Source: a virus. Taken from it: a stretch of 64,000 bases of DNA. The notes under the pieces were generated by a model. The model ran no database searches. It was given only the letters and a program-made list of their open reading frames with translations, and was not told where the DNA came from. The DNA lies in the IMG/VR virus record IMGVR_UViG_3300022555_000010, positions 32,001 through 96,000 of that record; one strand, given 5' to 3'. Position numbers and translations under genes: made by a program. This document shows positions 468-15,940 of the stretch, one piece after another (the first letter of the stretch is position 1; every line of letters begins with the position of its first letter).

Positions 468-820
468 GTGATGAACGTTTAACTGAAGGCATGATAAAAA
501 AGGGTGGAGTAAACGAAAAGCCGATAAGTCCAAAAAAGGACATTAGACCACCAGCACAATGTCCCCCAGCAATACCGACGATGGCTGAATCATTGGACAA
601 AATGGAAGAACTGATGGCTATGTTGACGTTGAAGGTCAACAGTTTGCAGTCAAATATCCGACTAATTATTACGCAACGAGATATACTGAGGGAACGGGTA
701 AGTAAACTTGAAGAAGAATGCCAGGGATTAAGGGATTTGACTTGTCCTCATTGTGCGTCATTGGCGAGTCGAGATGGTGAGATCCTGGCATTGAAGATCA
801 AATTGGGAGACATAAAATGA
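464..820 (+). CDS. hypothetical coiled-coil protein
   Basis: ORF with ATGA coupling at both ends. Confidence 0.6.
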   Translation: MSDERLTEGMIKKGGVNEKPISPKKDIRPPAQCPPAIPTMAESLDKMEELMAMLTLKVNSLQSNIRLIITQRDILRERVSKLEEECQGLRDLTCPHCASLASRDGEILALKIKLGDIK

Positions 821-998
821 TTGAATATCTTAAAAGGATGTTTTGCCGGCATGGTGCGATGGAAGTCATAACAGACATGGAATGGGTTAATCAAGGTGCC
901 TGCTGTGGATCAGTATGTCAGGAGCAACGGAAATATATGATTTGTAAGAAATGTGGATATAAGCGGAAGATATCCAATCGGTGACAAGTGAAGGAGGA

Positions 999-1214
999 AT
1001 GACAATGGAAGCGTATCAGGAACGAGTAATTGAAGAGAAGAACCAGTTGGATGAGAAGATCGGGAAACTGATGGACTTCATCGAGGGTCGGGATTTCTCC
1101 AGGAAAATCACTCTGGCAGAACAGAAGCGTATGCGTCGTCAGGAAATGATCATGGAACTCTATTCCGAAGTCCTGGCAGACCGGATCAAACACTTTACAA
1201 TGATTTCACACTGA
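999..1214 (+). CDS. small phage protein, crAss001_48-like
   Basis: AGGAGG SD before ATG 999; pattern YQERVIEEKxQLDEKIxKL...MxxYSxxLxxRI. Confidence 0.6.
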   Translation: MTMEAYQERVIEEKNQLDEKIGKLMDFIEGRDFSRKITLAEQKRMRRQEMIMELYSEVLADRIKHFTMISH

Positions 1215-1770
1215 TTTGATAATTCACAAGGCGAAACAATGAGCACACATCCAAGAACTGATGCTATCACTTACGGCTGTTCGTTTTCGCCATGGAATCA
1301 AAAGGTTGTCAATCATGCCAATACTCTCGAAGAAGAATTGGCTGCTATGACTCTTAGGGCAGAGAAGGCGGAGCAGAAGGCTACAGCAGCCAGGAAAGCA
1401 CTTGTGGAAGCCTCTATGGCAATGCCAGGAGATAATATGGAGGAGTTCCTTGACGATGTCCTGACAGGCATTGCTGAAATGGACTCTATACAATAATCCA
1501 TATTAATGATAACCTCTTCTTCCAATTAGTCATTGGGAGAAGGGTATGTCAGACTTTGATAGCACACAAGGATGCGTAACCAACGAAGGTTATGCGATGA
1601 TCATGTTTCTATTGGTCGTGGCATGTTTCGCCGTGCCCATCCTACTTGCCTTGGCAGTTGTCTCTGCCGTTCTCGCATTTTGTTCCATACCCATTTTAAT
1701 GATCATCGTCTCCCTGAGATGGCTAATAACCTGGTGGAAAGGTGAAATAGTCAAATAAGGGGGACTTCCA

Positions 1771-2088
1771 ATGTGTGATATGAGACAGACGGATAAGGAT
1801 GAGTATCGCAGGCTATTGGATGAAATCGGAGAGGATTACTGTAAAGCTGGAACCTATTGTATTTTCAAGGAATTCTTAATCGCTGCACATCCGTCCAGGC
1901 GTCTCCTTGTCCAACTCAAGGCGACCGATAAATTCAAATTTGAGAGAAGTGCCAAAGAAGGTAAGAACATTGGTTGGGAACTGGCGATGAAGCTCTGGGT
2001 ATCTGAGGGACACGCCGAACATTTCGCAGATGCTTATACAGATAAGAAACGATTCAGGGACATATACAGGGAGACAATGAGACAATGA
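1771..2088 (+). CDS. hypothetical protein
   Basis: ORF with SD; ATGA overlap with next gene. Confidence 0.6.
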   Translation: MCDMRQTDKDEYRRLLDEIGEDYCKAGTYCIFKEFLIAAHPSRRLLVQLKATDKFKFERSAKEGKNIGWELAMKLWVSEGHAEHFADAYTDKKRFRDIYRETMRQ

Positions 2089-2360
2089 AAACTATACAGA
2101 ATCTTTTAGGAGTCTTGGTTTGTTCTTTATTGATGGGTTGTGCTACGGGCATATCATTTATGATGGAACCTGACGGGGTCTACCCGGCAACAAAGATTGA
2201 TTGTTTATATATCACTGAGGAAGTCCCGGCAGAATGGTCTTATGACAAGAGACTGGTCGCATTGGATTTACCAATTATCATTCTTGACTTCCCCGTCTCA
2301 ATCGTGCTGGATACAGTAATGTTTCCATATGATCTATTTTTCAGAAGGGTAAAGGAATGA
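2085..2360 (+). CDS. YceK/YidQ-like lipoprotein
   Basis: signal peptide with lipobox LMGC; GVYxxT and ILDFPVSIVLDTVMFPYD motifs. Confidence 0.7.
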   Translation: MKTIQNLLGVLVCSLLMGCATGISFMMEPDGVYPATKIDCLYITEEVPAEWSYDKRLVALDLPIIILDFPVSIVLDTVMFPYDLFFRRVKE

Positions 2361-2731
2361 CAAACGCACAACAGGCATTGGCAAAGAAACACGGCTCACC
2401 TCAAGAATTCGAAAGAGCCTGCTTCGCAGCAACCAATTCAGGGACAATAACCCTGGATGAGATGATTGACGGGGTAAACCGTTACAGGGATGAATGGGCC
2501 AAAGCAGGTAAACCAGAAGACTTTATCAAGACAGTCCTTAAACGTGCCGGCTTGGATAAGGAAGAAATAGATGTTGTGATGGCTCTAAGGAATAAGTCTG
2601 GGGATACCCTGGCGACAGCCGCTGACCGGGCAAGAAACTTGATGGATCTCCAGGCAGGATGTGGCTTGTCAGATACGGCTGTGGCGAACACTTATCGAGA
2701 CATCATCGGGAAACTCATAGGCTTCTATTGA
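2357..2731 (+). CDS. hypothetical protein; N-terminus similar to the following small ORF (TNxQxxLxxxxGxPxEF)
   Basis: ORF with ATGA overlap. Confidence 0.55.
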   Translation: MTNAQQALAKKHGSPQEFERACFAATNSGTITLDEMIDGVNRYRDEWAKAGKPEDFIKTVLKRAGLDKEEIDVVMALRNKSGDTLATAADRARNLMDLQAGCGLSDTAVANTYRDIIGKLIGFY

Positions 2732-3778
2732 CAAACAAGCAACGAGGTTTGGTCGCTCAGTTTGGTAAGCCCGAGGAATTCAACAAGGCAATTCAAAAGG
2801 TCGCCAGAAAATCAATGACAATTCGTGATGCCAATCACGCAATACGATCCTATAAGGTGATGTGGAAGAAAGCAGGGGAAAAGGAATGAAGAAATATAGA
2901 GTCATTGAACCTTTATTCGGACCTGTGTGCTCTACTTGCCTGAGAAGAAGGCAATATCTGGCTACCGGCTGGCTCTGGTGGAAGAAAACAGGATGGTACT
3001 GCGATTGTAATTGGCCATTTAAAAAGTCAAAGAAGTCCTGATCCGGCGTATAATGGGGAATGAAGAAGTTCCTGAAATCAATTTTAATGTGGCTATGTAA
3101 GCGGGGAATACATCCCTATTACACCACTCAATATATTGAATGTGGCTGTTTTGCCATTCGATGCCCCGTATGTGGAGAATCCGACTATGACAACCCCAAC
3201 CCTCTCTAAAATTAAAGATCCTAATTCTTGTTCAAACTGTGTGTCTCTGAGATGGGGACCAGAAGAAGGCTGGGATAAATGTGAGAAGCATGGAATTGGT
3301 GTCTATTGGGCGGATAAAGCCAAACAGATCTGTAGTGATCATAAGAGATCCAACTTAAAAGACCCCAGGAACCCAGAACCCGTCATCGAATCATTTGATG
3401 ATTGGTTCAAGTCAACCAAACATTATGGTTGTCCGAGACATAATGATTTCTATGATGTTATGGAACAAGCCTGGAATGCGGCTCTAAAACACGGAGTAAA
3501 GAAATGAATATCACTCAATCAAAACTTAAAGAACTGGAACAAGCAATCCTGAAGGAAATCAATCGAGTCAGATTGGAACTGAGCGATTCTCTTTCCGAAT
3601 CAGATGACTTGGTCTTAGCCCAGGTCATAGACAAAATTTGGCAAAAACAACTCGGTATCATTACATCGAAAGAATAAATTATGGCTATCCCACATTTCAA
3701 ATTACCAGAACATAAACTCTTTCTCTATAGACTTGCTCGACATAAATACGAAGAGATGTGGAATAAGAGGAAGGACAC

Positions 3779-4453
3779 ATGGATAAACTGCAAATGGTCG
3801 ATCTCAATCTCGTTCTGAAGGCGATCGATGAGGAAAAGGAATTCCCCGGTGATATGCCTGACGTTATGAAACAAGCGATGGGCGGGAATACCACATTAAT
3901 CCAGAAAGCCTTGAGGTCTGCTGTATCCCTTACCAAAAGGAGTATCCAGAAGAGGATTGTAACCCAAATCGAGGCGTCATTACCCGGTTGTGGGGGCAAT
4001 TGCACCTGTGATAAGACTCCCAAACCCTTCAAGATTGAACTCTATCAACAGGATTGGACACCAGGGTTCGCTGCCTTCAACGACGATGGCTCCATCCAGG
4101 CAGGGGCTCCCGCTCATATCTCCCTGGATATCGGGGCCTTCATGAGCATCCTGGACACTGAGGAAATCAGTAAACAGGACTTACCTTATGTCATAGCCGA
4201 TTCAATCATGCACGAAATCATTCATGCCTTGGAATCCTGGGCCAGTGTCGAATTCAATGAGGAGAAGGTTGAGGGGCTTTTGGATAAATACCGGGAGAAA
4301 TACCGGAATACCCCACCACCGGTATCAGATGAGGCGATCACAAAAGACTGTTCTTCCTGTAAAAAGAAGTTCACGGGCGGAACAGATAGCTGTGTCCCGG
4401 CACCTGTGGGGATCTCAGGCTTCGAGGCTTGTGATAATTGGGAACAAAAATGA
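3779..4453 (+). CDS. HExxH-containing hypothetical protein (zincin-like)
   Basis: SD GGAAGG; IMHEIIHALE motif. Confidence 0.55.
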   Translation: MDKLQMVDLNLVLKAIDEEKEFPGDMPDVMKQAMGGNTTLIQKALRSAVSLTKRSIQKRIVTQIEASLPGCGGNCTCDKTPKPFKIELYQQDWTPGFAAFNDDGSIQAGAPAHISLDIGAFMSILDTEEISKQDLPYVIADSIMHEIIHALESWASVEFNEEKVEGLLDKYREKYRNTPPPVSDEAITKDCSSCKKKFTGGTDSCVPAPVGISGFEACDNWEQK

Positions 4454-4923
4454 GGAAGAAAGTGGATTGGACTATTCCAAGGATAAGACCTAATGATTAC
4501 TCATATCTGATTAGATTACGAGACCTCGATGTTTGGAAGAAATGGGCAATAAATATATCCGGATTGGAAAATCTCGAAATCGAGGCCAGAAAGTTTTCAA
4601 AAAAAGATGAAAATACCCATATGTGGGTTCGATGTGGTTCTAAGAAAATCTTTGTTAATGAGAACATCATTGGTAATCAGGCCTTCAGACTTCCAGACTT
4701 AAGGGCCTTCTTATTACATGAGTTGGGACATTTAATAGGTAAAAATCGATTGAATAGCGAATATGTTGCTCATAAATGGGCAATCAAGAAAGCCAAACAA
4801 TTGGGACTATTAATGGAATTGAGGAAATTACAAGTTCTGGCTCTTGGATGGAACGGAGGACCAGATATGGAAATAGAATATCGAGTAGCTGAAAAGAAAT
4901 TGTTGAAACAGGGACTATTATGA
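4450..4923 (+). CDS. putative metallopeptidase-like protein (HExxH)
   Basis: LLHELGH followed by SEYVAH. Confidence 0.55.
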   Translation: MRKKVDWTIPRIRPNDYSYLIRLRDLDVWKKWAINISGLENLEIEARKFSKKDENTHMWVRCGSKKIFVNENIIGNQAFRLPDLRAFLLHELGHLIGKNRLNSEYVAHKWAIKKAKQLGLLMELRKLQVLALGWNGGPDMEIEYRVAEKKLLKQGLL

Positions 4924-5205
4924 CTTTTTGCACCCATGGTTATAAATGCCCAAAATGCGGATCTTCGGCTATCCAGATGAAAAAAAGAATTGTGGTGCGA
5001 TATCTCTCAAATCTGGACTCGAAACCCTAATTTATCATCACACGTAAATATCACCGTTAAAGTCGGAAAGTCGAAAATCTTTCTGGAAGATACAGATAAT
5101 CTTTATTGCGGGGGATGTGGCTATTTAAGTGAATCAACAGCCTTTAAGTGGAACCCAGGACCCATAGGCTCTATCCCGGTAACAGCAGAAAAAGAGGTAG
5201 CATGA
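4920..5205 (+). pseudogene. tag-array zinc-ribbon gene frameshifted at A7 (4980-4986)
   Basis: MTFCTHGYKCPKCGS...MKK joins ELWCD...PIGSIPVTAEKEVA if one A is removed; matches the architecture of the next paralog. Confidence 0.7.
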
Positions 5206-5543
5206 GTGCCAGTTACAGTTATCAAGGATGGAAATGCCCCAAATGCGGTAGCGAGAACCTGGGAGTGACTGTCGAATTGGAATGTCGCCTCGAACAAACC
5301 GAATTTACAAATCCTGAAGGTTATGTCGGGAATGATTACCATGTGGAACCCCCATTCTCGGGGAACGGGGGTATGACCAAAACTTCACCAATGTCCTGTC
5401 ATAATTGCGGATATCAGGCCACGGTTGAAGCATTTGAGTGGATTAAAGGCCCAGAAGGATCTATCACGGCAACAGCAGAAGTCGCAATATGTGACGACTT
5501 AACCCCTCAATCAAGTCTTAATGTGTCATATATGACGCATTAA
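5202..5543 (+). CDS. tag-array protein (CPKC..CHNC; PEGSITATAE)
   Basis: ORF, tag, ATGA overlap. Confidence 0.75.
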   Translation: MSASYSYQGWKCPKCGSENLGVTVELECRLEQTEFTNPEGYVGNDYHVEPPFSGNGGMTKTSPMSCHNCGYQATVEAFEWIKGPEGSITATAEVAICDDLTPQSSLNVSYMTH

Positions 5544-5562
5544 AGACACCTGTGTCAATTAT

Positions 5563-5757
5563 ATGAGTCATTATCCATTGATCAGATGCCCAAAATGTTT
5601 CAGTCATGAATTGGATTTGAGAGGTGATCCGAAACATAGTAATTATACGGTATACCAATGCCTGAAATGCGGTAATGATGGTTCGAATATCGAATTCTCA
5701 GTTAATAACCCGGAAGGCTGTATCGCAGTAAATCAGGGCGAGGATGTTAAAGAATGA
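5563..5757 (+). CDS. tag-array zinc-ribbon protein
   Basis: CPKC..CLKC; PEGCIAVNQGED. Confidence 0.8.
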   Translation: MSHYPLIRCPKCFSHELDLRGDPKHSNYTVYQCLKCGNDGSNIEFSVNNPEGCIAVNQGEDVKE

Positions 5758-5954
5758 AATCCGGGAAACATAGATGCCATAACTGTATGGGAGATGTCTT
5801 CTGGGACGGAACTCGAAGACAGCCTGTTAAATATATCCTCAAATGCGTCAAATGCGGTCAAACAGGCAATTATCTAACCTTCCTTGATAATACCCCAAAA
5901 GGATGTTTCCTGGTCAGAGAGGAACAAGACGAATTATGCCTCACTTTACCTTAA
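5754..5954 (+). CDS. tag-array zinc-ribbon protein
   Basis: CHNC..CVKC; PKGCFLVREEQDE. Confidence 0.8.
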   Translation: MKSGKHRCHNCMGDVFWDGTRRQPVKYILKCVKCGQTGNYLTFLDNTPKGCFLVREEQDELCLTLP

Positions 5955-6136
5955 AATTAAGATGTCCATATTGTCTATTCAGAATCTTCCACCTCGCTAT
6001 CGTCCAGGATGCATTGGAGATCGAGCCGCAATACGAATGCCAGGGATGCGGTTATACAGATATCTCTGAAAATCTCTACGATAATACCCCAAAAGGATGT
6101 ATCGCAGTGACAATGGGGGAGGACGTAAAAGAATGA
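5936..6136 (+). CDS. tag-array zinc-ribbon protein
   Basis: CPYC..CQGC; PKGCIAVTMGED. Confidence 0.8.
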   Translation: MPHFTLKLRCPYCLFRIFHLAIVQDALEIEPQYECQGCGYTDISENLYDNTPKGCIAVTMGEDVKE

Positions 6137-6306
6137 ATTACCGATGCCCCAAATGTAATGAAACCGAATTTAAAGAGGCGAATATTATGTCCAACGGGAG
6201 ACGAGTAGTCGAATGCCGTAATTGTGGATTTGAAGATTTCGATTTCTGGATGATTGACCTCATCCCGGAAGGCACTATCCCAGTAAGACAGGAAAGGGAT
6301 ATTTAA
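6133..6306 (+). CDS. tag-array zinc-ribbon protein
   Basis: CPKC..CRNC; PEGTIPVRQERD. Confidence 0.8.
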   Translation: MNYRCPKCNETEFKEANIMSNGRRVVECRNCGFEDFDFWMIDLIPEGTIPVRQERDI

Positions 6307-6501
6307 ATGGCTCACTTTATCTTAGGCGTCAAATGTCCCAAATGTCTCTCGCATTCTATTCAGGTGTCAGATATCCAATCCTGGGAAAGAGGAAGACTCT
6401 GGGAATGCACAAATTGCCATTATGACGACGTCGAACAAACCTTTATCCAAAATGAACCAAAAGGCTGTATCACCGTAACAGCAGGAAAAGACGTGGAATG
6501 A
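6307..6501 (+). CDS. tag-array zinc-ribbon protein
   Basis: CPKC..CTNC; PKGCITVTAGKD. Confidence 0.8.
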   Translation: MAHFILGVKCPKCLSHSIQVSDIQSWERGRLWECTNCHYDDVEQTFIQNEPKGCITVTAGKDVE

Positions 6502-6740
6502 CTATCAGTACCGTCAAAATTACACAATTAAATGGAAAGATTAAAATCAGCCAATTAAGATGTCTTTCATGTGGGAACACGGGATTTGATAAAATGATCA
6601 AAAAAGTGCCTATGATTCAATTGTCCACATTGGACGTCCAATTGAAATGTAATCATTGTGGCCAATTAGGGGATATGTGGATCTTCAGGGATAAAACCCC
6701 TCCAGGTACTATCCCGGTCAACAGGGAAAGGGATATATGA
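6498..6740 (+). CDS. tag-array zinc-ribbon protein
   Basis: CLSC..CNHC; PPGTIPVNRERD. Confidence 0.8.
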   Translation: MTISTVKITQLNGKIKISQLRCLSCGNTGFDKMIKKVPMIQLSTLDVQLKCNHCGQLGDMWIFRDKTPPGTIPVNRERDI

Positions 6741-6928
6741 TCCGAGTCATCAGATGCCCCATTTGTCTGAGCCACCGTCTCTCCCGAGATATCCCATTGA
6801 AATTCATGGATTATAAATCCAGGTGGAAATGTAAGGATTGCAATTATGAGGATACCGATGATAACTTCATCGTGAATTGTGCCCCAGGATGCATTACCGT
6901 ATCAAGAGGCGAGGACGTAATAAAATGA
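6737..6928 (+). CDS. tag-array zinc-ribbon protein
   Basis: CPIC..CKDC; APGCITVSRGED. Confidence 0.8.
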   Translation: MIRVIRCPICLSHRLSRDIPLKFMDYKSRWKCKDCNYEDTDDNFIVNCAPGCITVSRGEDVIK

Positions 6929-7250
6929 AAAGATTAAAAGAAATCATGGTTGCCTATCTCAAATTAAATTGGTATCTATTAACCCAAGGCATGTGGAAAG
7001 GCGAATGCGGCTATACCGTCCAACACCAAAATAATCACATCGTTAAAATCGCCGCAGTTAAAGGCTCTATCCGCAATTTCACCTTCCAAGTAATGAAAAC
7101 CTTCTATGAGGAACAATAATGAATAAAAGAAATCACTATAACCAGCCGTCCCCTAAAGAATTCATCATCTTTATCATTATCCTCTTCCTCATTGTGAAAT
7201 TGGGCTGCATGGGATTGGATAAATTGTTGTTGAAATAAAAGGAGTCAATT

Positions 7251-7781
7251 ATGAATTGGTTCAAATGCCTGGAGAAGATTAACGACGTCTCAATATCACC
7301 CTTAGATCAGTTTATGGATAATCGAGGCTGGCTCGCAGAAATATATCGGGAAGATACTACCCCAACTTCCCTCCTCCCCAAAATGGCCTATGTCTCAATC
7401 ACTAAGCCAGGAGTCGTCAGAGGCCCTCACCAACATACTCAACAATCAGACTTATTCGCCTTTGTCTATGGAATATGGTGGGTTAAACTCTGGGACGTCC
7501 GACAAGACTCTCCAACCTATAAGACTATCATGAGATTCAAACTCACGATCCCAGCCGTCGTCATCGTACCCCCAGGCGTCGTCCACGCTTACGGTAACGC
7601 CCATTACAAAAAGAATGGCATCGTCTTCAACCTCCCGAACCAACTCTTCAAAGGCCAAGGCAAGAAAAACCCGGTAGACGAAATCAGACACGAAGAGAAT
7701 CCAGCCTTCAATACAGACGATATCTCAAACCAACATTGGATCTCCCAATTCTGGGCTCTACAAACCTATATCCAATCATAA
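7251..7781 (+). CDS. dTDP-4-dehydrorhamnose 3,5-epimerase-like cupin (RmlC family)
   Basis: DNRGWLAEIYR, VVRGPHQH, LWDVRQDSPT and VPPGVVHAY motifs; SD AGGAG. Confidence 0.85.
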   Translation: MNWFKCLEKINDVSISPLDQFMDNRGWLAEIYREDTTPTSLLPKMAYVSITKPGVVRGPHQHTQQSDLFAFVYGIWWVKLWDVRQDSPTYKTIMRFKLTIPAVVIVPPGVVHAYGNAHYKKNGIVFNLPNQLFKGQGKKNPVDEIRHEENPAFNTDDISNQHWISQFWALQTYIQS

Positions 7782-7787
7782 ACAGCA

Positions 7788-7864
7788 CACCCGTGTAATA
7801 CCTCTTTTCTTCCCCCTACATATAATACTAAAGAAATTTCTGCACTTTCCCCACCCGTGTAATA
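7788..7864 (+). repeat. 13-bp direct repeat CACCCGTGTAATA x2
   Basis: copies at 7788-7800 and 7852-7864. Confidence 0.85.
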
Positions 7865-8016
7865 TCGAGGAATAGCCATATTTTCCAGAAGGTAGGGAAA
7901 GAGGTGGAAATGGGTTGAGCAGTATAGGGACATACATGCACGATAACATAGATACTGTTACATAGACATATAGAGAGTTATATACAGGGATAGACATATG
8001 ACTGCTTACCAGGTAA

Positions 8017-8124
8017 CAAGATGAAAATGATATGAAACCAAGATGAAAATGATATGAAACCAAGATGAAAATGATAGCAACCAAGATGAAAATAATATGA
8101 AACCAAGATGAAAATGATAGCAAC
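8017..8124 (+). repeat. five tandem 21-22 bp repeats CAAGATGAAAAT(G/A)ATA(TGA/GC)AAC, iteron-like
   Basis: units start at 8017, 8039, 8061, 8082 and 8104; no spacers. Confidence 0.95.
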
Positions 8125-8230
8125 CCGACAGAGAATTTTCCCATTCCTCTCCACAGAATTTTCACTCCAATTCTTGTTACGGGACAGAAACACTTCCAAC
8201 AGTTCCATATGGTCGGCGATGTAGGGGCCT

Positions 8231-8303
8231 TGAAATAGGACAGCTATGAAAATAACGGAAGGCAAGTGCCTTGTGGGGGCCTGTTCTATGAGCCAGGATT
8301 TTT
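8231..8303 (+). repeat. bipartite element TGAAATAGGACAGCTATG-N39-ATGAGCCAGGATTTTT, copy 1
   Basis: identical boxes and spacing at 16479-16551. Confidence 0.85.
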
Positions 8304-8337
8304 TGAAAATTCGATTTTGCGATTTTGGGGTAAAAGG

Positions 8338-8508
8338 ATGAATAATGACATGGCGTTAATGATCTCATTGCAATTTTGTGATGGGTGTCGCAAAAAGGTG
8401 GATATAAGGGTGGGGTTATCAGCAGACAGATGGGGGAGGAAGTGGAATATCTGTCCGAGATGTGGTGGGACAGGGCATATTGGGAAAATGATTGGGTATC
8501 TGGGGTAG
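8338..8508 (+). CDS. small zinc-ribbon protein, tagless paralog of 8552 and 9128
   Basis: CDGCRKKVDIRV...CPRCGG. Confidence 0.6.
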   Translation: MNNDMALMISLQFCDGCRKKVDIRVGLSADRWGRKWNICPRCGGTGHIGKMIGYLG

Positions 8509-8551
8509 AGGGGTGCATATTTGTGGCTGATGAAATAAATGTGAGGAATTA

Positions 8552-8941
8552 ATGGGGAGTGGGTTTCAATTCAGCAAAGTGGTGACGACGGCGGAATTAT
8601 ATTGTGCCAAGTGTCGGGAAGTGGTGGACATACGGGTGGACATATCGAAGGATCGGTGTGTGGAGTGGACAGAGTGTCCGAGATGTCATGGGAATTCGAC
8701 GACCTGGAAGAATTCGAATAAGCCTGGGGACACGGTTGGGAGTATTTATGTGGTAGACGAGGAGAATTACCATCAGGATTATCAGAGGATGGCACCACAA
8801 TTTCGGGGGAATCGTGTGGGAGGATCTTGTAGGGAGTGTGGGAACTGCGATAAATGTACGGTACATTCGACAGATGGGTGGGCAAGTTGTTGGTGGCCGA
8901 AGGGAAGTATTATTGTGATGGAGGAGCGTGAGGAGGGATAA
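8552..8941 (+). CDS. tag-array protein, two Cys modules
   Basis: CWWPKGSIIVMEERE; internal tag-like VGSIYVVDEE. Confidence 0.8.
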   Translation: MGSGFQFSKVVTTAELYCAKCREVVDIRVDISKDRCVEWTECPRCHGNSTTWKNSNKPGDTVGSIYVVDEENYHQDYQRMAPQFRGNRVGGSCRECGNCDKCTVHSTDGWASCWWPKGSIIVMEEREEG

Positions 8942-8944
8942 AAG

Positions 8945-9121
8945 ATGGTAGAATTCAAACCATGTAGGACTTGTGGGTATCGGCCATATGACAATTACAA
9001 GTTATCGGATGATGGGTGTAACCGGGAATTTATTACAAAGGGAGGGAAAGACTGTTGGGTTCCGGAAGGGAGCATTGGGATTTCGGATGAGCAGCCAGTA
9101 ATTGAGACAATTGGGGTATAA
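8945..9121 (+). CDS. tag-array protein (58 aa, not in ORF track)
   Basis: MVEFKPCRTC...CWVPEGSIGISDE. Confidence 0.75.
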   Translation: MVEFKPCRTCGYRPYDNYKLSDDGCNREFITKGGKDCWVPEGSIGISDEQPVIETIGV

Positions 9122-9127
9122 TGGGGG

Positions 9128-9337
9128 ATGGACGATGAGATTAAATATTTCAAATTATGGTGTTATGACTGTAAGAGGTGGGCAGACATACGGATGTCAG
9201 TAGATTTGGAGGGGAAGGAATTAGCAGGGGTGACGAGCTGTTCGATATGTAAAGGGAAGGATACGAGATGGCTCTTTAGTTTTACGGGGGCGTCCAAGGA
9301 GGGGTGCATATTTGTGACGGGGAGTCGGGATGAGTAA
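9128..9337 (+). CDS. tag-array protein
   Basis: CYDC..CSIC; KEGCIFVTGSRDE. Confidence 0.75.
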   Translation: MDDEIKYFKLWCYDCKRWADIRMSVDLEGKELAGVTSCSICKGKDTRWLFSFTGASKEGCIFVTGSRDE

Positions 9338-9537
9338 TAATGAATTAAAGAGATGTGGGACGTGTGAAGCGTATAAGGATTGGAATCGTGAAGGGGGATT
9401 TGGAGGAGCAGGGATGAAGAGGTGTTCCTTGCATTTAAGAGCGTTGGGGGGGGATATCTGAAGAATGTAGGCGGACGAGGATACATTGGCACCCGGTAGG
9501 GACGGTAAGGGTTGAGGGAGAGCGGGATGAGTTTTAA
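9330..9537 (+). pseudogene. tag-array gene frameshifted at G8 (9446-9453)
   Basis: G7 restores MSNNELKRCGTC...IHWHPVGTVRVEGERDEF. Confidence 0.7.
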
Positions 9538-9711
9538 ATTGGATGAATTAAAGAGGTGCGGGACTTGTGGGAGTTATCGTGGGGGATCACGTCAGAGAAT
9601 CAGTGTCAGAGGGGATTGATGGGGTTGGGGGTTTGTATGAATGATGGGAAGGGGAGGATTTATTGGCATCCGGTGGGAATGATAAGGGTGGAGGAAGAAA
9701 GGGATGAGTAA
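9527..9711 (+). pseudogene. tag-array gene frameshifted at G5 (9581-9585)
   Basis: G6 restores MSFKLDELKRCGTC...IYWHPVGMIRVEEERDE. Confidence 0.7.
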
Positions 9712-9943
9712 GGGCTTGGAGGGATGTAAGGCCTGTGAGACTTGTGGGGATTATTTGGAATGGGAGACGATATTGGTTGCAAGGAAATGGATCTGTACCA
9801 GTGGAATAATTTTTACGGGAGTGTGTATTCAGGATGGCAGGATTTATTGGCATCCGGTGGGGACGATAAGAGTTATGGGGGAGCAAGATGACATTTCAAA
9901 AGATGAGAACGATGGCATTAATTCAGAGGAGTGCCGGGGGTAA
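9704..9943 (+). CDS. tag-array protein
   Basis: YWHPVGTIRVMGEQD. Confidence 0.8.
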   Translation: MSKGLEGCKACETCGDYLEWETILVARKWICTSGIIFTGVCIQDGRIYWHPVGTIRVMGEQDDISKDENDGINSEECRG

Positions 9944-10094
9944 GGTTCCGCCGATAGAGGGGGGAGGGTGTCAGGAGTGTCAGGTTTTTTATGATGGGTG
10001 TAACAGTCTTCAGAGTCGGGAGGAGATATTGACTTGTTTTGTAGCATTGGGGTGTATCAAGGTTATTAGAGAGCAGGATGCAGAGTCAGTTTAA
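9888..10094 (+). CDS. tag-array protein
   Basis: CFVALGCIKVIREQD. Confidence 0.75.
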   Translation: MTFQKMRTMALIQRSAGGKVPPIEGGGCQECQVFYDGCNSLQSREEILTCFVALGCIKVIREQDAESV

Positions 10095-10251
10095 AGGGTG
10101 TTTCAATTGTGGTCAGAATATCTACGTTCCAAGTGCGATTGTTGGAGTATATTGTAATGATTGTATAGTGGAGGCTGGTAAGGTTCGGATGGAATTATCG
10201 AAATGGTATCCGAAGGGGGCGATACCGGTTCAGGGGGAGCGTGATGAGTAA
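10078..10251 (+). CDS. tag-array protein (not in ORF track)
   Basis: CFNC..CNDC; WYPKGAIPVQGERDE. Confidence 0.75.
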   Translation: MQSQFKGCFNCGQNIYVPSAIVGVYCNDCIVEAGKVRMELSKWYPKGAIPVQGERDE

Positions 10252-10396
10252 TATTGAATCATGTCGTGGTTGTCAGAGGAGGCAAGGGAGTTGTAATTGG
10301 TTAAGGGAGTCAATGGGAGATAAGTGGATGAGTAATCTTGATCAATGTTGGCATCCGATAGGGACGATATTAGTGATATGGGAGCAGGATGAATAA
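10244..10396 (+). CDS. tag-array protein (50 aa, not in ORF track)
   Basis: CRGC; CWHPIGTILVIWEQDE. Confidence 0.8.
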   Translation: MSNIESCRGCQRRQGSCNWLRESMGDKWMSNLDQCWHPIGTILVIWEQDE

Positions 10397-10556
10397 TAAG
10401 TGGGAAGGGTGTTCAGAATGTTGTCGAGGGAAGACGGGGTCTGGGTACGGGTATTGTGCCTGGATAAGGGAAGATTTAGGGTGTAGGGATTTAGATGTTC
10501 GGTTGTGTTGGCATCCGGTTGGGACGATTTTAGTGGTTAAGGAACGGGATGAGTGA
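10389..10556 (+). CDS. tag-array protein (not in ORF track)
   Basis: CSEC; CWHPVGTILVVKERDE. Confidence 0.8.
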   Translation: MNNKWEGCSECCRGKTGSGYGYCAWIREDLGCRDLDVRLCWHPVGTILVVKERDE

Positions 10557-10743
10557 ATTCAAGTCATGCACGAAATGTGGTGGAAGGCCATATATTGATT
10601 TCAAGTTATCGATAGGGGATTGTCCTCGGAGGTATTGGATAGATCAGAGGAGGACGTTTAGTGGGGTAGACTGTTGGTATCCGGAGGGGAGTATACCGGC
10701 AGATGATGAGATGCCGGTGATACCGGTAATAGGTGAAGAATGA
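10549..10743 (+). CDS. tag-array protein
   Basis: CWYPEGSIPADDE. Confidence 0.8.
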   Translation: MSEFKSCTKCGGRPYIDFKLSIGDCPRRYWIDQRRTFSGVDCWYPEGSIPADDEMPVIPVIGEE

Positions 10744-10934
10744 AGAATAAACTGGATGAGCGTGTAATCAAGATATTGGGATGTCGGGAATGCGGGAATG
10801 GGGATAGATGTAAGATGGTGGATAGGTGTGTGAGTCGTGCTAATCGGATAGATGAGGAACGGGAGGATGGTCAAGTGGGAGGGTATTGGTATCCTGTTGG
10901 GACGATCCGGGTCGTGGGTGAGAAGAATGGGTGA
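10740..10934 (+). CDS. tag-array protein
   Basis: YWYPVGTIRVVGEK. Confidence 0.8.
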   Translation: MKNKLDERVIKILGCRECGNGDRCKMVDRCVSRANRIDEEREDGQVGGYWYPVGTIRVVGEKNG

Positions 10935-11118
10935 ATTTAATTCATGCTTTACGTGTGAATTTTTACCGTTTGATGGATTTTCATTAGCGTTGCAGGAATG
11001 TCCACATCGGGAATGGGCATTGGTAGCGAACACTCAATTATTTGATTGTTGGGGTCCCAGGGGTTGTATACAGGTGGCAGGCGAGAGGTCTATGATTCCG
11101 GTAATAGGTGAGGAATGA
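10927..11118 (+). CDS. tag-array protein
   Basis: CWGPRGCIQVAGER. Confidence 0.75.
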   Translation: MGEFNSCFTCEFLPFDGFSLALQECPHREWALVANTQLFDCWGPRGCIQVAGERSMIPVIGEE

Positions 11119-11336
11119 AGAATGAGGCGTCAGAAGATTTGAAAGCCTTTGTGTTAATGAATCGGTTACAGGAGAAGAGGATGGCATTATGGGCAAGGGG
11201 GAAGGTAGAGGGAGGGGCATGTTCCGCGTGTAATGGGTGTTTTGGATGTAGGGCGTTATTTGGGACCTGGAATAAATGTTGGACACCTATTGGGGCGATC
11301 GGGATTCGAGAGGAGGTGGATGATGGTTCACTGTGA
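11115..11336 (+). CDS. tag-array protein
   Basis: CWTPIGAIGIREEVD. Confidence 0.75.
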   Translation: MKNEASEDLKAFVLMNRLQEKRMALWARGKVEGGACSACNGCFGCRALFGTWNKCWTPIGAIGIREEVDDGSL

Positions 11337-11526
11337 AGATTGTGGATTGATGAGGAAGAAGTTCAACAATTGGAATTCGGATGGACCCACGTGTAAGGCG
11401 TTTCGGAAAGCAATGGGGATAGAGAGAGACTTTCGGGTGTCATGGTTGAAGTTTCTGGAACGATGTTGGCATCCTGTGGGGAGTATACCGGTGATCAAGG
11501 AACGAGATGAACAAGATGGAGCCTGA
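11320..11526 (+). CDS. tag-array protein
   Basis: CWHPVGSIPVIKERDE. Confidence 0.8.
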   Translation: MMVHCEDCGLMRKKFNNWNSDGPTCKAFRKAMGIERDFRVSWLKFLERCWHPVGSIPVIKERDEQDGA

Positions 11527-11698
11527 CTGTCAGGAATGTGAAATATTGAGGGCTAGGAGTTCAAGAGGGAATCAATGTTCTGAATTTCGGGCGGCGGTTG
11601 GTATGAGGACAGATGTTTTGTATGGGAGTTTGAGTAAGTGTTTTCATCCGGTGGGGACGATACTTGTGGTAGAGGAGTTTGATGAAAAGGGTCATTAA
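11507..11698 (+). CDS. tag-array protein
   Basis: CFHPVGTILVVEEFDE. Confidence 0.8.
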   Translation: MNKMEPDCQECEILRARSSRGNQCSEFRAAVGMRTDVLYGSLSKCFHPVGTILVVEEFDEKGH

Positions 11699-11885
11699 TT
11701 GGATTTGGTTATGGTGTACGACTCCGAGGTGGGACAGGGATGATGCGTCTATTTCGATGCAATTGAAGGGATGTAAGGGATGTGGGAGATACAATAAGAA
11801 GTGGGACTGCAAGTTATTGATGACCTATGAGGTCTGTTTTCATATGCCTGGGACGATTAGGGTAATAAGGGAGCAAGATGAGTAA
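11682..11885 (+). CDS. tag-array protein
   Basis: CFHMPGTIRVIREQDE. Confidence 0.8.
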   Translation: MKRVINWIWLWCTTPRWDRDDASISMQLKGCKGCGRYNKKWDCKLLMTYEVCFHMPGTIRVIREQDE

Positions 11886-12156
11886 GGATTGTTTAGATTG
11901 TGGGAACAGTCGGTTAGATGTTTATGGACGGAGTATTCCGGTTATACACCACATATGTTTAAAGTGTCGTGGAGACAGGTTTGATCCAAAGCCGATGGTA
12001 TCGCAATGGTATCCGAGGGGGTTGATTCGGGTAGAGGATGAGTTTGAGATAGGGCCGGCGGAGTATGTGGGGCAGATGCCGATACGGGAGGAAGTCACGG
12101 TAATACCCAGGGGATGTATTGGGGTAATCAGGGAGATGGCCGAAAGTGGAGCGTGA
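11878..12156 (+). CDS. tag-array protein with two tags
   Basis: WYPRGLIRVEDE and IPRGCIGVIRE. Confidence 0.75.
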   Translation: MSKDCLDCGNSRLDVYGRSIPVIHHICLKCRGDRFDPKPMVSQWYPRGLIRVEDEFEIGPAEYVGQMPIREEVTVIPRGCIGVIREMAESGA

Positions 12157-12475
12157 TCACAAGATTATCTGTAATGAGTGTGGGAAGATATATTACCCGG
12201 AGTCATTTGATGAGATTGATTCCCGGACGAGGTGTGTTTGTCGTGGTTCATTTTATGGGATAGCTGATTTTAGAGGATTAGATGTTTGGGGGATGTTGGG
12301 GGAGTTCAGGATTTTTGAGGGCAAGGAGATAAAAGTTGAGGCGATATTGGTAGACACGAAGACATTGGGGACGATGAACATAAAGAAGGAAGAAAGTGAT
12401 AATGGGTTATTTTGGAATAAGAGGCTGATTTTGGAAGGGTGTATTAATGCGTGGAAGGAAAGGGATGAGAAATGA
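12146..12475 (+). CDS. tag-array protein
   Basis: LEGCINAWKERDE. Confidence 0.7.
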   Translation: MERDHKIICNECGKIYYPESFDEIDSRTRCVCRGSFYGIADFRGLDVWGMLGEFRIFEGKEIKVEAILVDTKTLGTMNIKKEESDNGLFWNKRLILEGCINAWKERDEK

Positions 12476-12612
12476 TAGGGGAACATGAAGCGGGAAAGGG
12501 GTCAGCGAGTCGGGTAAAGGACTTGAAGAAATACGGGGAAGGGTATTCCGGTATACAATGGAACAGCAAGAAGCCGGCGAAGGTAAAGCCGGCTAAGAAG
12601 ATCAAGAGATGA
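12472..12612 (+). CDS. small basic phage protein without the tag (AGKGSxxR..Y...I.W)
   Basis: hand-translated; ATGA overlaps at both ends. Confidence 0.55.
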   Translation: MIGEHEAGKGSASRVKDLKKYGEGYSGIQWNSKKPAKVKPAKKIKR

Positions 12613-12809
12613 ACATTCGGTCAATGAACGAGATTGGGGATGGTCCTGGGTGTCGGGAAGACTGTAATGTGGCAATGAATGGGTGTGCCATGTTTCGACC
12701 GAAGATGGATGTTTGGATAGTCGTGGACAAACCCGGAGCCACACATTGTTATCATCCCCGTGGCAGTATTTTAGTGGTTAAGGAGTTAGATGAGTTGGAG
12801 TTGCAATAA
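12609..12809 (+). CDS. tag-array protein
   Basis: CYHPRGSILVVKELDE. Confidence 0.8.
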   Translation: MNIRSMNEIGDGPGCREDCNVAMNGCAMFRPKMDVWIVVDKPGATHCYHPRGSILVVKELDELELQ

Positions 12810-12975
12810 TTGTGGAGGACGATGGGAGGGGAAGGGTTGCACTTTAGACCAACTGTTATATTGGGAGATTCAGGATCAGAAGAGACAAAATTGGGATCAG
12901 GTATGGAAGAATGAGGAGGTGTGTTATTGGCCTCCTGGGACTATTTTGGTGATTAATGAAGAAGACGAATTGTGA
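12790..12975 (+). CDS. tag-array protein
   Basis: CYWPPGTILVINEEDE. Confidence 0.8.
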   Translation: MSWSCNNCGGRWEGKGCTLDQLLYWEIQDQKRQNWDQVWKNEEVCYWPPGTILVINEEDEL

Positions 12976-13156
12976 AGATTGTGCCGGAGGGAATAGTAAA
13001 TTCAAGGGGTGTCAGGCGGATCTTTTAGAACTCATTGTGGATGCGGATATGCTTCAGAGTATGTTATCAGGGGATGGGACGGCATTATGTTGGCATCCGA
13101 AGGGATGTATTCTGGTGATTAAGGAGCAAGATGAAGAGGGACTGTGCGGATTGTGA
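12956..13156 (+). CDS. tag-array protein
   Basis: CWHPKGCILVIKEQDE. Confidence 0.8.
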   Translation: MKKTNCEDCAGGNSKFKGCQADLLELIVDADMLQSMLSGDGTALCWHPKGCILVIKEQDEEGLCGL

Positions 13157-13313
13157 AGTCTTAAGGCGATACGAGAATCCTGGATATCATTGTGAAAATT
13201 TCAGGAAAGCGGTAGGGATAGAGGTTGATGGCAGATTACGAGATAAGCCATTGACCTCTTATTGTTTTCATCCTTACAGGACTATTTTAGTGGTCGGAGA
13301 ACGAGATGAGTAA
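13131..13313 (+). CDS. tag-array protein
   Basis: CFHPYRTILVVGERDE. Confidence 0.8.
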   Translation: MKRDCADCEVLRRYENPGYHCENFRKAVGIEVDGRLRDKPLTSYCFHPYRTILVVGERDE

Positions 13314-13482
13314 TCCTTGTTTAGACTGCAATATACCTCTTCTTACAAGTTGCTGGGAATTTCGATTAGCTCTGGGGATCAGTTCTGTAGATCTTCCCCA
13401 TGACCAGGCATTAAATTCTCGTTGTTATCATCCCGTGGGAAGCATAAAAGTAGAAGGAGAGCGTGATGAGACAAGAGATTAA
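13306..13482 (+). CDS. tag-array protein (not in ORF track)
   Basis: CLDC; CYHPVGSIKVEGERDE. Confidence 0.8.
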   Translation: MSNPCLDCNIPLLTSCWEFRLALGISSVDLPHDQALNSRCYHPVGSIKVEGERDETRD

Positions 13483-13783
13483 AGAGGACCGGTGGAAGGG
13501 GATCGGTCACATCCGACAGATTTCAAAAGAGGTTCTTACTGAGACAGAGTATTCGAATGCGTCTGTAAGGTCTGGGGAGTGTCCCTGGAGATTTGAGAGG
13601 AACAATAGGTGGCCGTATCGGTTAGGGATATGTCAGAAGAGTGCTGGGAAGAATGGGACAATGATCTGTATGCATTTCCGGGGTATAATAAAGAAGAAGG
13701 AAGAATATGTTCGGTGTTCGTATTGGATGAGGCCAAAGGGGACGATTAAAGTGGTACTGGAGAAGGATGAAGCGGAAGGATAA
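13466..13783 (+). CDS. tag-array protein (paralog of 13948)
   Basis: WMRPKGTIKVVLEKDE. Confidence 0.8.
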   Translation: MRQEIKEDRWKGIGHIRQISKEVLTETEYSNASVRSGECPWRFERNNRWPYRLGICQKSAGKNGTMICMHFRGIIKKKEEYVRCSYWMRPKGTIKVVLEKDEAEG

Positions 13784-13970
13784 AAATAAGAACAAGGCTC
13801 CGGGGTGTTTGGGGTGTCATGTGGTATCAGCATCAGATGATTGTTTTGGGTTCAGGTGTCGGATGAATGTCTGGTATCAACCAGATAAAGCTGGTCGGCA
13901 AAAGTGTTATCATCCTTCTGGGACAATTTTAGCGATATCGGAGCAGGATGAACATATTGCAGAACATTGA
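13767..13970 (+). CDS. tag-array protein
   Basis: CYHPSGTILAISEQDE. Confidence 0.8.
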   Translation: MKRKDKNKNKAPGCLGCHVVSASDDCFGFRCRMNVWYQPDKAGRQKCYHPSGTILAISEQDEHIAEH

Positions 13971-14292
13971 GACTGATGATTTCTCGAAGGGAGTGAGGCA
14001 CATACGGGAGTCTTCGAATTGGGGGCAATATCAGGTGTCGGCTGAAGTATTTCCGGATGATTGTCCGAAGAGGTTGGAATATAAGGAGAGTGATCTTGAT
14101 ATGGGGGCAGGGGAATTTATGATAGGAATCTGTAAGGCACATTATCCTTCATCGACAGGGGGGAATACTCATACGTGTAAGCATTATGTTGGGAAGATTC
14201 ACAAGGGGAATGTGGATTACATAAGGTGTTCTTGTTTATTTCATCCTGTTGGGGCGATCAAGGCAATTCAGGAAAGAGAGTCTGATGAGTGA
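13948..14292 (+). CDS. tag-array protein (paralog of 13466)
   Basis: LFHPVGAIKAIQERE. Confidence 0.8.
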   Translation: MNILQNIETDDFSKGVRHIRESSNWGQYQVSAEVFPDDCPKRLEYKESDLDMGAGEFMIGICKAHYPSSTGGNTHTCKHYVGKIHKGNVDYIRCSCLFHPVGAIKAIQERESDE

Positions 14293-14477
14293 ACAAAGAT
14301 TGTGAGGAGTGTGGAGGAAACAGGTGGATTGAGAAGACTCCTGCTGGTAATTTTATACGGGATCATCGGGTGTGTGACTGGGTTTGGAAGAATCATATGC
14401 GAATGACGGATGACGCGTGTTGGCATCCAAAGGGGAGTTTGATCGTTGTAAGTGAAAGAGCCGAGGACAAATTGTAG
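14289..14477 (+). CDS. tag-array protein
   Basis: CWHPKGSLIVVSER. Confidence 0.75.
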   Translation: MNKDCEECGGNRWIEKTPAGNFIRDHRVCDWVWKNHMRMTDDACWHPKGSLIVVSERAEDKL

Positions 14478-14652
14478 AGGGTGTGATGTTCAAAATTCGG
14501 TGTTTGATGGCCGAAAGAACTTATTAAAGACCTGTATCAATTTCAGGGATCGGATGGGTTGTTCGAGGCATATGGGAGTGAATTGGATGGATGACTGCTG
14601 GCATCCGATAGGGACTGTTTTAGTAGCCGAGGAACAAGATGAATACCTGTGA
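14452..14652 (+). CDS. tag-array protein
   Basis: CWHPIGTVLVAEEQDE. Confidence 0.8.
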   Translation: MKEPRTNCRGCDVQNSVFDGRKNLLKTCINFRDRMGCSRHMGVNWMDDCWHPIGTVLVAEEQDEYL

Positions 14653-14821
14653 GGATTGCAACATTCGGAATTGGGCAAATGAGAGTCATCTGGACTTATT
14701 CAAGTCCTGTAATTATTTCAGGAATTTGATGGAGTGTGATAGGCATACGGGGTTGAATTGGTTGGATGATTGTTGGCATCCGATTGGGACGATTTTAGTG
14801 ACCAGGGAGAAAGATGAGTAG
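14639..14821 (+). CDS. tag-array protein (close paralog of 14452)
   Basis: CWHPIGTILVTREKDE. Confidence 0.8.
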   Translation: MNTCEDCNIRNWANESHLDLFKSCNYFRNLMECDRHTGLNWLDDCWHPIGTILVTREKDE

Positions 14822-14990
14822 AATACTGTTGTGTCCAAATTGTCAGGTGTTTCAGAATGGGTCTGGGATTCTTTGTAATGAATTCATCACATTGATGAAT
14901 GTAAGTTTATTACCTGAGACTCGGGAATGGCAAGGCAAGTGTTTTCATCCGATAGGAACGATTTTAGTGATATGGGAACAAGATGAGTGA
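14814..14990 (+). CDS. tag-array protein (not in ORF track)
   Basis: CPNC; CFHPIGTILVIWEQDE. Confidence 0.8.
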   Translation: MSRILLCPNCQVFQNGSGILCNEFITLMNVSLLPETREWQGKCFHPIGTILVIWEQDE

Positions 14991-15192
14991 TCAAGACATT
15001 AGTTGTTCAGAGTGTGAGATCTTCATATCGAAGAAGAAGTATAAGAGCAATGGGATTTCACGGTGTGTTGACTTCAGGTGGAAGATGGAGATCTTTGATG
15101 AAAGAGAAGGGCTGTCATTTCAAGATTATTCGATGAGGTGTTTTCATTTGCCTGGGACGATTTTGGTATCAGGAGAGCAAGATGAAGTGTGA
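14983..15192 (+). CDS. tag-array protein
   Basis: CFHLPGTILVSGEQDE. Confidence 0.8.
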   Translation: MSDQDISCSECEIFISKKKYKSNGISRCVDFRWKMEIFDEREGLSFQDYSMRCFHLPGTILVSGEQDEV

Positions 15193-15370
15193 AGACTGCA
15201 ATCTGACTCACTGGGGAATATTCAAGATGAGAGGGGAGAAGTGTTTTTATTTTAAGGAGAAGATGGGACTTAACTGGTTCGTGTTACCGGAGAAGTCGTG
15301 GACAGAGCATGACTTACCGTGTTGGCATTCACCTGGGACGATATTGATCGTGGAGGAGAAAGATGAGTGA
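15182..15370 (+). CDS. tag-array protein
   Basis: CWHSPGTILIVEEKDE. Confidence 0.8.
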   Translation: MKCEDCNLTHWGIFKMRGEKCFYFKEKMGLNWFVLPEKSWTEHDLPCWHSPGTILIVEEKDE

Positions 15371-15563
15371 GGATGATTGCCGGGATTGTGGTGCATATCG
15401 GTTTGAGAGGAAAGCTGGAGAAGGGACTATGCGGACATGGACGATGTGCAACAAGATTGGGAATTTACTCGGGAAGAACATTCTTCCAACTTTGCAACAG
15501 TGTTTTCACCCATCTGGGACGATACTGGTGATAGGAGAGAAAGATGAAAACAAAGTGTTGTGA
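15363..15563 (+). CDS. tag-array protein
   Basis: CFHPSGTILVIGEKDE. Confidence 0.8.
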   Translation: MSEDDCRDCGAYRFERKAGEGTMRTWTMCNKIGNLLGKNILPTLQQCFHPSGTILVIGEKDENKVL

Positions 15564-15744
15564 TTGCCAATTGGTGATTAACGGAAAGGTTTTAGGGTAT
15601 CGTAACTGCAATGCATTTCGAGTGAAGATGGGACTGGGGCATATGACTCCATTACCGGTGACGAAGGATGAGTATGATTGGGGCAGTCGATGTTTTCATA
15701 AGAGCGGGACGATATTAGTAGCAGATGAACGAGAAGCAATATGA
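15544..15744 (+). CDS. tag-array protein
   Basis: CFHKSGTILVADERE. Confidence 0.8.
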   Translation: MKTKCCDCQLVINGKVLGYRNCNAFRVKMGLGHMTPLPVTKDEYDWGSRCFHKSGTILVADEREAI

Positions 15745-15940
15745 TTGTCGGGAATGTGGTTCTTATTTGATGGACATTCCGAAAGGTAGTGTTGGGAATA
15801 AGCCGATGAGGAATTGGAGATTATGTCGGTTGGCTTGCAAGTTAAAGGGGGTTGTTCCGATTAATTCCCGTGATAAGTGTTGGTATCCTATTGGGACTAT
15901 CCCGGAATTTGGGGAGCAAGATGAAGCCGACAAAGGATGA
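15725..15940 (+). CDS. tag-array protein
   Basis: CWYPIGTIPEFGEQDE. Confidence 0.8.
   Translation: MNEKQYDCRECGSYLMDIPKGSVGNKPMRNWRLCRLACKLKGVVPINSRDKCWYPIGTIPEFGEQDEADKG

Follow-up and report, generated by a model that had tools for sequence, protein, structure and literature searches.

A 556-bp non-coding gap at positions 7782–8337 separates two strand-specific compositional gradients in the genome of an uncultured freshwater jumbo phage, and we hold with moderate confidence that it is an iteron-type replication origin with divergent initiation. The origin reading is supported because four features meet in the gap: the point at which strand composition switches, the least stable AT-rich stretch of the contig, five helically phased repeats, and a promoter-like motif with a partial repeat. 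The window that was analysed is a stretch of 64,000 nucleotides, corresponding to bases 32001–96000 of one 151,773-bp virus contig; coordinates are those of the window unless they are given as contig positions.

The contig is a fragment. Identical proteins are also encoded on a 342,049-bp contig, which places the genome size at 342 kb or more. Other assemblies run past both contig ends into new + strand genes with positive skew, and with these the contig was extended by approximately +19.5 kb and −8.9 kb, so that about 180 kb of the genome of at least 342 kb was examined in all. The contig encodes a portal protein, a large terminase, collagen-like tail fibres, CobS/CobT-like proteins, an NAD-dependent ligase and RtcB, and the extensions beyond its ends carry genes for a Ro60/TROVE-like protein, an S-AdoMet lyase, a serpin and glycosyltransferases. 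Across the whole contig, the + strand carries 98 of the 123 open reading frames of at least 150 aa, and G outnumbers C (44,512 versus 25,679; overall GC skew of +0.27). The large terminase gene is located at contig 129.9–133.0 kb, the portal gene at 133.6–135.7 kb and the gap at 39.8–40.3 kb. The large terminase (1028 aa) probably contains an intein, with Hint and LAGLIDADG matches and a terminase match confined to the C-terminal half; a ribonucleotide-reductase-like protein (1104 aa) also appears to be intein-bearing (Hint and LAGLIDADG matches). The phage is present, with 100% identity, in freshwater and lake metagenomes from at least three studies, and no RNA dataset is listed among the runs that contain it. 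Its nearest cultured relatives are very distant, the portal protein being 24–39% identical to those of Bacillus phage G and Tunturiibacter phage Tunturi_5.

Organization of the gene-free gap

No true gene-free stretch of the contig is larger than the gap. The gap, its elements and its flanks are as follows.

1..7781, + strand genes: left gradient zone, in which NNR codons shift from G to A, increasingly towards the gap
7251..7781, + strand: gene adjoining the gap on the left, encoding a 176-aa RmlC-like cupin (Pfam PF00908, E = 7.9e-13)
7782..8337, no strand: non-coding gap of 556 bp, candidate origin and control region
7788–7800 and 7852–7864, + strand: two copies of the 13-bp direct repeat CACCCGTGTAATA, unique in the 151.8-kb contig
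7920..8016, no strand: AT-rich stretch, candidate unwinding element, with ATAGAYAY words at 7948, 7962 and 7990
8017..8125, + strand: five tandem direct repeats, CAAGATGAAAATGATA(TGAAAC/GCAAC), with units of 22, 22, 21, 22 and 21 bp
8129..8163 (starts at 8129 and 8152), + strand: two copies, 23 bp apart, of the 12-bp repeat CA(G/C)AGAATTTTC
8231..8303, + strand: bipartite motif TGAAATAGGACAGCTATG-N39-ATGAGCCAGGATTTTT, putative promoter/operator of the rightward early array
8338..26000, + strand: right gradient zone, spanning the early array of microprotein genes and the first genes past it, with an extremely G-rich + strand

The gap follows the most C-rich gene of the contig, the cupin gene (GC skew of −0.23; third-position skew of −0.49), and within it the AT-rich stretch is succeeded by the five repeats, the promoter-like motif with its partial repeat, and the first gene. 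The initial annotation, made by reading the sequence, had described five tandem repeats of 21–22 bp, a 13-bp direct repeat and an AT-rich stretch, all of which were confirmed. The tandem array was recovered at 8017–8125 by TRF (score of 185, 92% matches). Its start-to-start spacing of 22, 22, 21 and 22 bp keeps the units in phase with the helix at two turns per unit, and the 22-bp unit has no second locus in the 151.8-kb contig. Within the array, A-tracts and an ATGAAA sub-repeat have an 11-bp period, and the array should therefore be intrinsically bent. The 13-bp repeat begins at 7788 and 7852. The 200-bp segment at 7920–8119 is the least stable duplex of its length in the contig (rank 1 of 151,573 for low duplex stability; z = 3.7; 69% A+T), and a 10-bp repeat occurs at 7962 and 7990.

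The only other copy of the bipartite motif in the contig is located at 16479–16551, where it heads the next sub-array. Both copies lie approximately 35 nt upstream of the first gene of a sub-array, with spacers that are unrelated in sequence and equal in length; the spacer of the first copy contains a 10-nt iteron core, ATGAAAATAA, at 8246. Since the motif heads the first sub-array, the gap is also the head of the early region. A different promoter-like motif, TTCCGTAT-N15-GCAATGT, is represented at 23642–59326 by 13 copies that have no more than one mismatch, all of them intergenic and on the + strand, often with an ATG a few bases downstream. These copies begin at 23.6 kb, past the microprotein array, and with up to three mismatches there are 15 matches, compared with 1.7 expected by chance. 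The motif is promoter-like in sequence and may represent a putative phage-specific class of middle-type promoters.

Complementary pyrimidine and purine tracts, which the initial annotation had also pointed out, are present at 7801–7819 and 7889–7908 and pair in the centroid fold, but single-strand folding is no better than that of shuffled sequences (z = −0.38 for the part with the tracts and +1.84 for the whole gap), so that neither the hairpin suggested by the tracts nor an ssi-like structure exceeds chance. An Rfam search of the gap gave no family matches.

The annotation had allowed for the region being an assembly join of two contigs. An exact copy of the 559-bp stretch 7782–8340 is found in six independent records from several samples; because all six contain identical bridging sequence, the gap is not an assembly join. 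The number of repeat units is five in these six records and two in one metagenome scaffold, which lacks 65 bp and is otherwise identical over 7700–8360. The two-unit scaffold represents either an assembly collapse or real copy-number variation. Logan unitigs break only within the tandem array, as expected at k = 31, and contig ends do not cluster at the gap.

Skew step and strand-specific transition gradients

Third-position GC skew changes from −0.29 to +0.70 across the gap (3-kb flanks), a step of 0.98 that is the largest in the contig, the next largest being 0.54. It is also the sole step in the contig with a flip of third-position AT skew (+0.10 to −0.20). The composition thus inverts between genes that are all on the + strand, as the initial annotation had noted, and the hand counts given there are exact (G22/C40 at 7321–7440, G26/C4 at 9361–9420, G16/C6 at 1–60 and G20/C13 at 44101–44160). 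The switch occurs at approximately 7860, where the second 13-bp repeat ends, and successive 40-nt bins have G/C counts of 3/16 and 4/11 up to this point, then 10/5 and 15/4. Measured in 1-kb windows, the skew ranges from +0.04 to +0.29 over the first 7 kb, drops to −0.16 at 7–8 kb, reaches +0.40 at 8–9 kb and a peak of +0.61 at 9–10 kb, and is approximately +0.25 by 26 kb. Per-gene third-position skew describes a sawtooth: it is about +0.4 at contig 32 kb and declines to its lowest value in the last gene on the left, and on the right it starts at +0.65 to +1.00 and decays over approximately 25 kb. No other change in skew sign occurs in the roughly 180 kb examined. Cumulative skew, which the initial annotation had suggested computing over the full genome, was computed over the 151.8-kb contig; the detrended curve has its contig minimum at 8210, but in the raw curve the minimum at 7856 is only local.

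Homopolymeric runs of at least three nucleotides mirror each other across the gap, with 77 G-runs and 3 C-runs per 2 kb on the right, 22 and 28 on the left, and a contig mean of 38 and 9. All 12 potential G-quadruplexes of the whole contig (four G≥3 runs, loops of 1–7) are on the + strand and none is on the − strand; three of these motifs (contig 41499, 42428 and 42778) are found in the 3 kb that follow the gap on the right. Elsewhere, two blocks with sharp edges (contig 116.2–119.8 and 140.4–143.3 kb) have a third-position GC skew of about zero and no AT-skew flip, and may represent structural genes that were acquired recently or have a distinct composition.

The + strand passes from C-rich to G-rich, a polarity of the origin type and not of the terminus type. 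On either side, the strand that runs 5′ to 3′ away from the gap is G-rich and C-poor, which is the leading-strand pattern of forks diverging from the gap.

Two-fold degenerate sites record transitions only, and were scored as C/(C+T) at NNY codons and G/(A+G) at NNR codons. The values are:

Baseline zone: NNY C/(C+T) 0.35; NNR G/(A+G) about 0.63
Just right of the gap: NNY C/(C+T) 0.17–0.19; NNR G/(A+G) unchanged, 0.63
Just left of the gap: NNY C/(C+T) near baseline, 0.38; NNR G/(A+G) 0.21–0.27

On each side only one of the two indices is shifted (right, NNY 0.18 versus 0.35, Fisher p = 1e-8; left, NNR 0.27 versus 0.64, p = 2e-28), and the complementary index is not (right, p = 0.78; left, p = 0.36). 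To the right of the gap the excess C→T changes fall on the + strand, and to the left on the − strand. Both shifts are graded, in agreement with the earlier remark that the bias relaxes with distance. On the left, G/(A+G) falls towards the gap through 0.52, 0.43, 0.41, 0.30, 0.24 and 0.21 from a baseline of 0.63 (Spearman p = 4e-12; exponential decay length of 5.2 ± 1.5 kb). On the right, C/(C+T) is 0.17–0.25 up to approximately 20 kb and reaches baseline values of 0.35–0.43 by approximately 26 kb (Spearman p = 4e-18; decay length of 13.5 ± 4.7 kb). Extrapolated to the gap, both exponential fits give a value of about 0.13. Because the contigs of this phage are all 100% identical, the direction of the substitutions could not be polarised. 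Four-fold degenerate sites to the left of the gap have a composition close to the complement of the baseline; to the right, G rises to 0.53, and C and T are both reduced. The initial annotation had proposed long-lived single-stranded DNA near initiation. The strand-specific, decaying C→T signal at two-fold sites lends that proposal real support, but the drop in four-fold T on the right does not fit it, as plain deamination does not explain such a drop.

The gap is straddled by an array of dozens of zinc-ribbon microproteins of 45–130 aa (4990–23156), which share the C-terminal tag PxGxIxV..E.D(E) and are found on both sides of the gap in one orientation. The codons for the conserved glycine of the tag are GGC (3/6), GGA (2/6) and GGT (1/6) on the left, and predominantly GGG (21/34) and GGA (11/34) on the right. 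Because the same family shows opposite biases on the two sides, the bias follows position rather than gene content. The opposite bias of these paralogues argues against a foreign origin or a functional basis for the composition, and for a positional mutational pressure. A profile of the family searched against 5.8 billion proteins gave matches in this phage only.

From these data we infer the following series of events at the gap. A DNA-binding protein would occupy the five helically phased 21/22-bp repeats, the adjoining AT-rich stretch at 7920–8016 would melt, and DNA synthesis would start both ways from about 7860–8016. The exposed strand, whether lagging-strand template or displaced strand, would be the + strand to the right and the − strand to the left. 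Its cytosines would deaminate over evolutionary time, leaving C→T changes on the + strand on the right and on the − strand on the left. The bias would be strongest at the origin and fade with distance, either through lagging-strand priming that is delayed near the start or through origin-fired forks that often stop after a few kilobases. Leftward forks would meet the transcription of the co-oriented genes head-on and would rarely get far. DNA near the origin would always be copied by forks of fixed direction, and distal DNA mostly by rightward or origin-independent forks, of mixed origin.

Alternative explanations for the gap

The interpretation of the gap as an origin, proposed in the initial annotation, is partly supported by the skew polarity, the repeats and the candidate unwinding stretch, but no initiator and no DnaA box accompany them. 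Pfam searches of the neighbours within approximately 4 kb of the gap yielded no replication initiator, only the cupin and weak zinc-ribbon matches, and PHROGs searches of larger genes farther off in the window yielded no initiator either. No DnaA box (TTATCCACA, at most one mismatch) occurs in 7782–8337, and the total for the window is not above chance. The tandem repeats could equally be operator sites. Operator repeats also figure in a rather improbable explanation in which the gap is a transcription control region only, with an upstream terminator, operator repeats and an early promoter, and the bias is driven by transcription: on the right by exposure of the non-template strand or R-loops in the early array, and on the left by a long leftward antisense transcript. 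Consistent with it, tandem repeats 5′ of promoters often serve as operators or enhancers, the promoter-like bipartite motif at 8231–8303 recurs at the next sub-array, the C→T zone on the right coincides with the early array, and the G-runs of the + strand there favour R-loops. That zone and the early array have roughly the same right-hand limit, and part of the signal may therefore come from early transcription or R-loops. However, there is no skew step at the second bipartite copy (16479) or at the 13 TTCCGTAT-N15-GCAATGT promoters, which indicates that transcription starts alone do not make such steps. The genes on the left are truly on the + strand, as judged by the Pfam cupin match and the tagged family, so that the signal there would need 5–8 kb of antisense transcription; no promoter-like site was found on the − strand in 7000–9000, where a sigma-70-type scan scored below chance, and the phage promoter motif has no − strand copy near the gap. 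A mosaic boundary, with the left 8 kb acquired from, or inverted relative to, DNA of opposite bias and the repeats incidental, is highly improbable. It would account for the four-fold composition on the left, which is nearly the complement of the baseline, and has a parallel in the two sharp-edged low-skew blocks elsewhere in the contig. Those blocks lack an AT-skew flip, however, and the bias on the left is graded over approximately 8 kb rather than block-like; the right side is likewise abnormal and graded, and one phage-specific microprotein family, found by the profile search in no other organism, occupies both sides in the same orientation.

It is unlikely, but less so than either of these, that the gap is or adjoins a physical end of the packaged linear genome, such as a short terminal repeat or a terminase site. 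Forks that start at both ends and run inward, in recombination-dependent or end-primed replication, would produce the same divergent polarity on a circularised map. The early small genes begin directly after the gap, an arrangement known from the left ends of the T7, T5 and SPO1 genomes, and phased A-tracts and repeats are found at packaging sites too. Terminase proximity is typical of pac and cos sites, and not of T7- or T5-type ends; here the terminase and portal genes are approximately 90 kb from the gap, which counts against an end. In ICP1, a gene-free space of 1.3 kb has a pac site beside an inferred rolling-circle origin (PMC7145576). Against a genome end, the six independent records bridge the gap identically with no clustering of contig ends, and 5′→3′ resection at ends would, from strand geometry, give the opposite polarity. 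Contig depth to the right of the gap is 1.0–1.4 times that of the flanks by a crude measure, and not the two-fold value of a long terminal repeat. The bridging records, the terminase distance and the contig depth speak against an end without being decisive. One specific candidate, a long terminal repeat between the bipartite motifs at 8231 and 16479, was rejected, since there is no two-fold depth and the skew is smooth through 16.5 kb. A Nextera adapter at one contig end (17203, one run) was judged irrelevant to physical ends. By a similarly crude measure, Logan contigs at 8005–11600 have 1.2–1.9 times the depth of contigs at least 5 kb away in three of four runs, an excess that could be a copy-number peak, composition bias or noise.

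Relation to known replication origins

In iteron plasmid origins (R6K gamma, P1 oriR, F oriS and pSC101), direct repeats of 17–22 bp with two-turn spacing adjoin an AT-rich stretch, followed by a promoter region with a partial repeat; DnaA boxes are present in many, not all. The gap shares with R6K gamma, P1 oriR and pSC101 the order of AT-rich stretch, repeats and promoter-like motif with partial repeat. It differs from the iteron plasmids in having no gene for a Rep/π-type initiator beside the repeats and no DnaA boxes; the first gene 3′ of the gap encodes a zinc-ribbon microprotein of 55–80 aa, and the phage genome is at least 342 kb. Vertebrate mitochondrial DNA and the oriV of the IncQ plasmid RSF1010 replicate by strand displacement, with a composition that varies with the time spent single-stranded, and in RSF1010 iterons lie beside an AT-rich region from which synthesis diverges by displacement. 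In contrast to these systems, the gap gave no ssi-type hairpins above the level of shuffled sequences, and its gradients extend over only approximately 5 and 13 kb of a very large genome. It is quite doubtful that replication starts at the gap by long-range strand displacement, leaving approximately 5 kb on the left and 13 kb on the right single-stranded for long periods and acting as a strand-specific mutator that diversifies a library of approximately 65 microprotein genes. If true, such a mutator zone would amount to positional generation of diversity without a dedicated enzyme.

Among phages, T4 oriE has evenly spaced 12-nt ‘iterons’ that have been likened to those of R6K gamma, with no established link between the repeats and origin activity (PMC3016281). 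T4 oriF and oriG consist of a promoter and an AT-rich unwinding element, and are primed by R-loops that leave the non-template strand single-stranded (PMC3016281). Early origin firing in T4 is followed by recombination-dependent replication, and forks early in infection often fail to complete (PMC3016281). Origin and fork behaviour of this kind would explain the gradients at the gap. The gap shares with T4 origins the evenly spaced direct repeats and an actual or candidate unwinding element close to a promoter or promoter-like motif, and differs in its 21/22-bp unit and in the position of the AT-rich stretch, which is upstream and not downstream of the promoter-like motif.

Huge phages are reported to show GC-skew patterns of unidirectional or bidirectional replication, with approximately 30% in the ‘unidirectional’ class (PMC7162821), and GC-skew switches have been used to place origins in their genomes (PMC7162821; bioRxiv 10.1101/2021.08.26.457843). 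With its one-signed skew and single sawtooth, the contig resembles the ‘unidirectional’ class (PMC7162821). An intergenic skew discontinuity is common to those skew-placed origins and to the gap, which differs in having two strand-specific, distance-dependent gradients in co-oriented genes and a reversed zone of approximately 5–8 kb on one side. ICP1 also has a large gene-free region, which has been proposed to combine replication start and genome processing; the sawtooth there is one of read coverage, and the evidence is coverage and termini in timed infections, as opposed to composition only here (PMC7145576). The theta origin of ICP1 is located elsewhere in its genome (PMC7145576).

Relatives of the region were sought in several collections. 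A DNA search of a phage collection with this region gave no match; in IMG/VR, the 16-nt repeat core had single chance matches only, the 18-nt box A had 0 matches, and the cupin, a 253-aa protein and CobS had no relatives. The portal protein led to five relatives in IMG/VR, which are fragments estimated to be 24–50% complete and cover the other side of the portal, and the microprotein profile had no match in them. A metagenome scan with a 224-aa neighbour returned domain-level relatives only, none with a comparable skew step, and cluster look-ups contained no variant alleles near the gap. Tunturi_5, with its 39% identical portal protein, was considered as a comparison genome and rejected because it has genes on both strands.

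The placing of origins by skew in huge phages and the occurrence of iteron-like repeats at phage origins are already known; this analysis adds a clean strand-specific, distance-dependent transition footprint. For jumbo phages, hardly any replication origin is known, and coarse skew plots have been the only means of placing origins in metagenomic genomes. The gap provides a concrete and testable origin candidate, a 556-bp element with co-oriented paralogous genes around it. The gradients also offer an evolutionary read-out, of a kind rarely available, of strand exposure at the start of replication: which strand it affects and how far it extends. If the footprint recurs in other jumbo phages, gradients at two-fold degenerate sites could map origins more sharply than GC skew.
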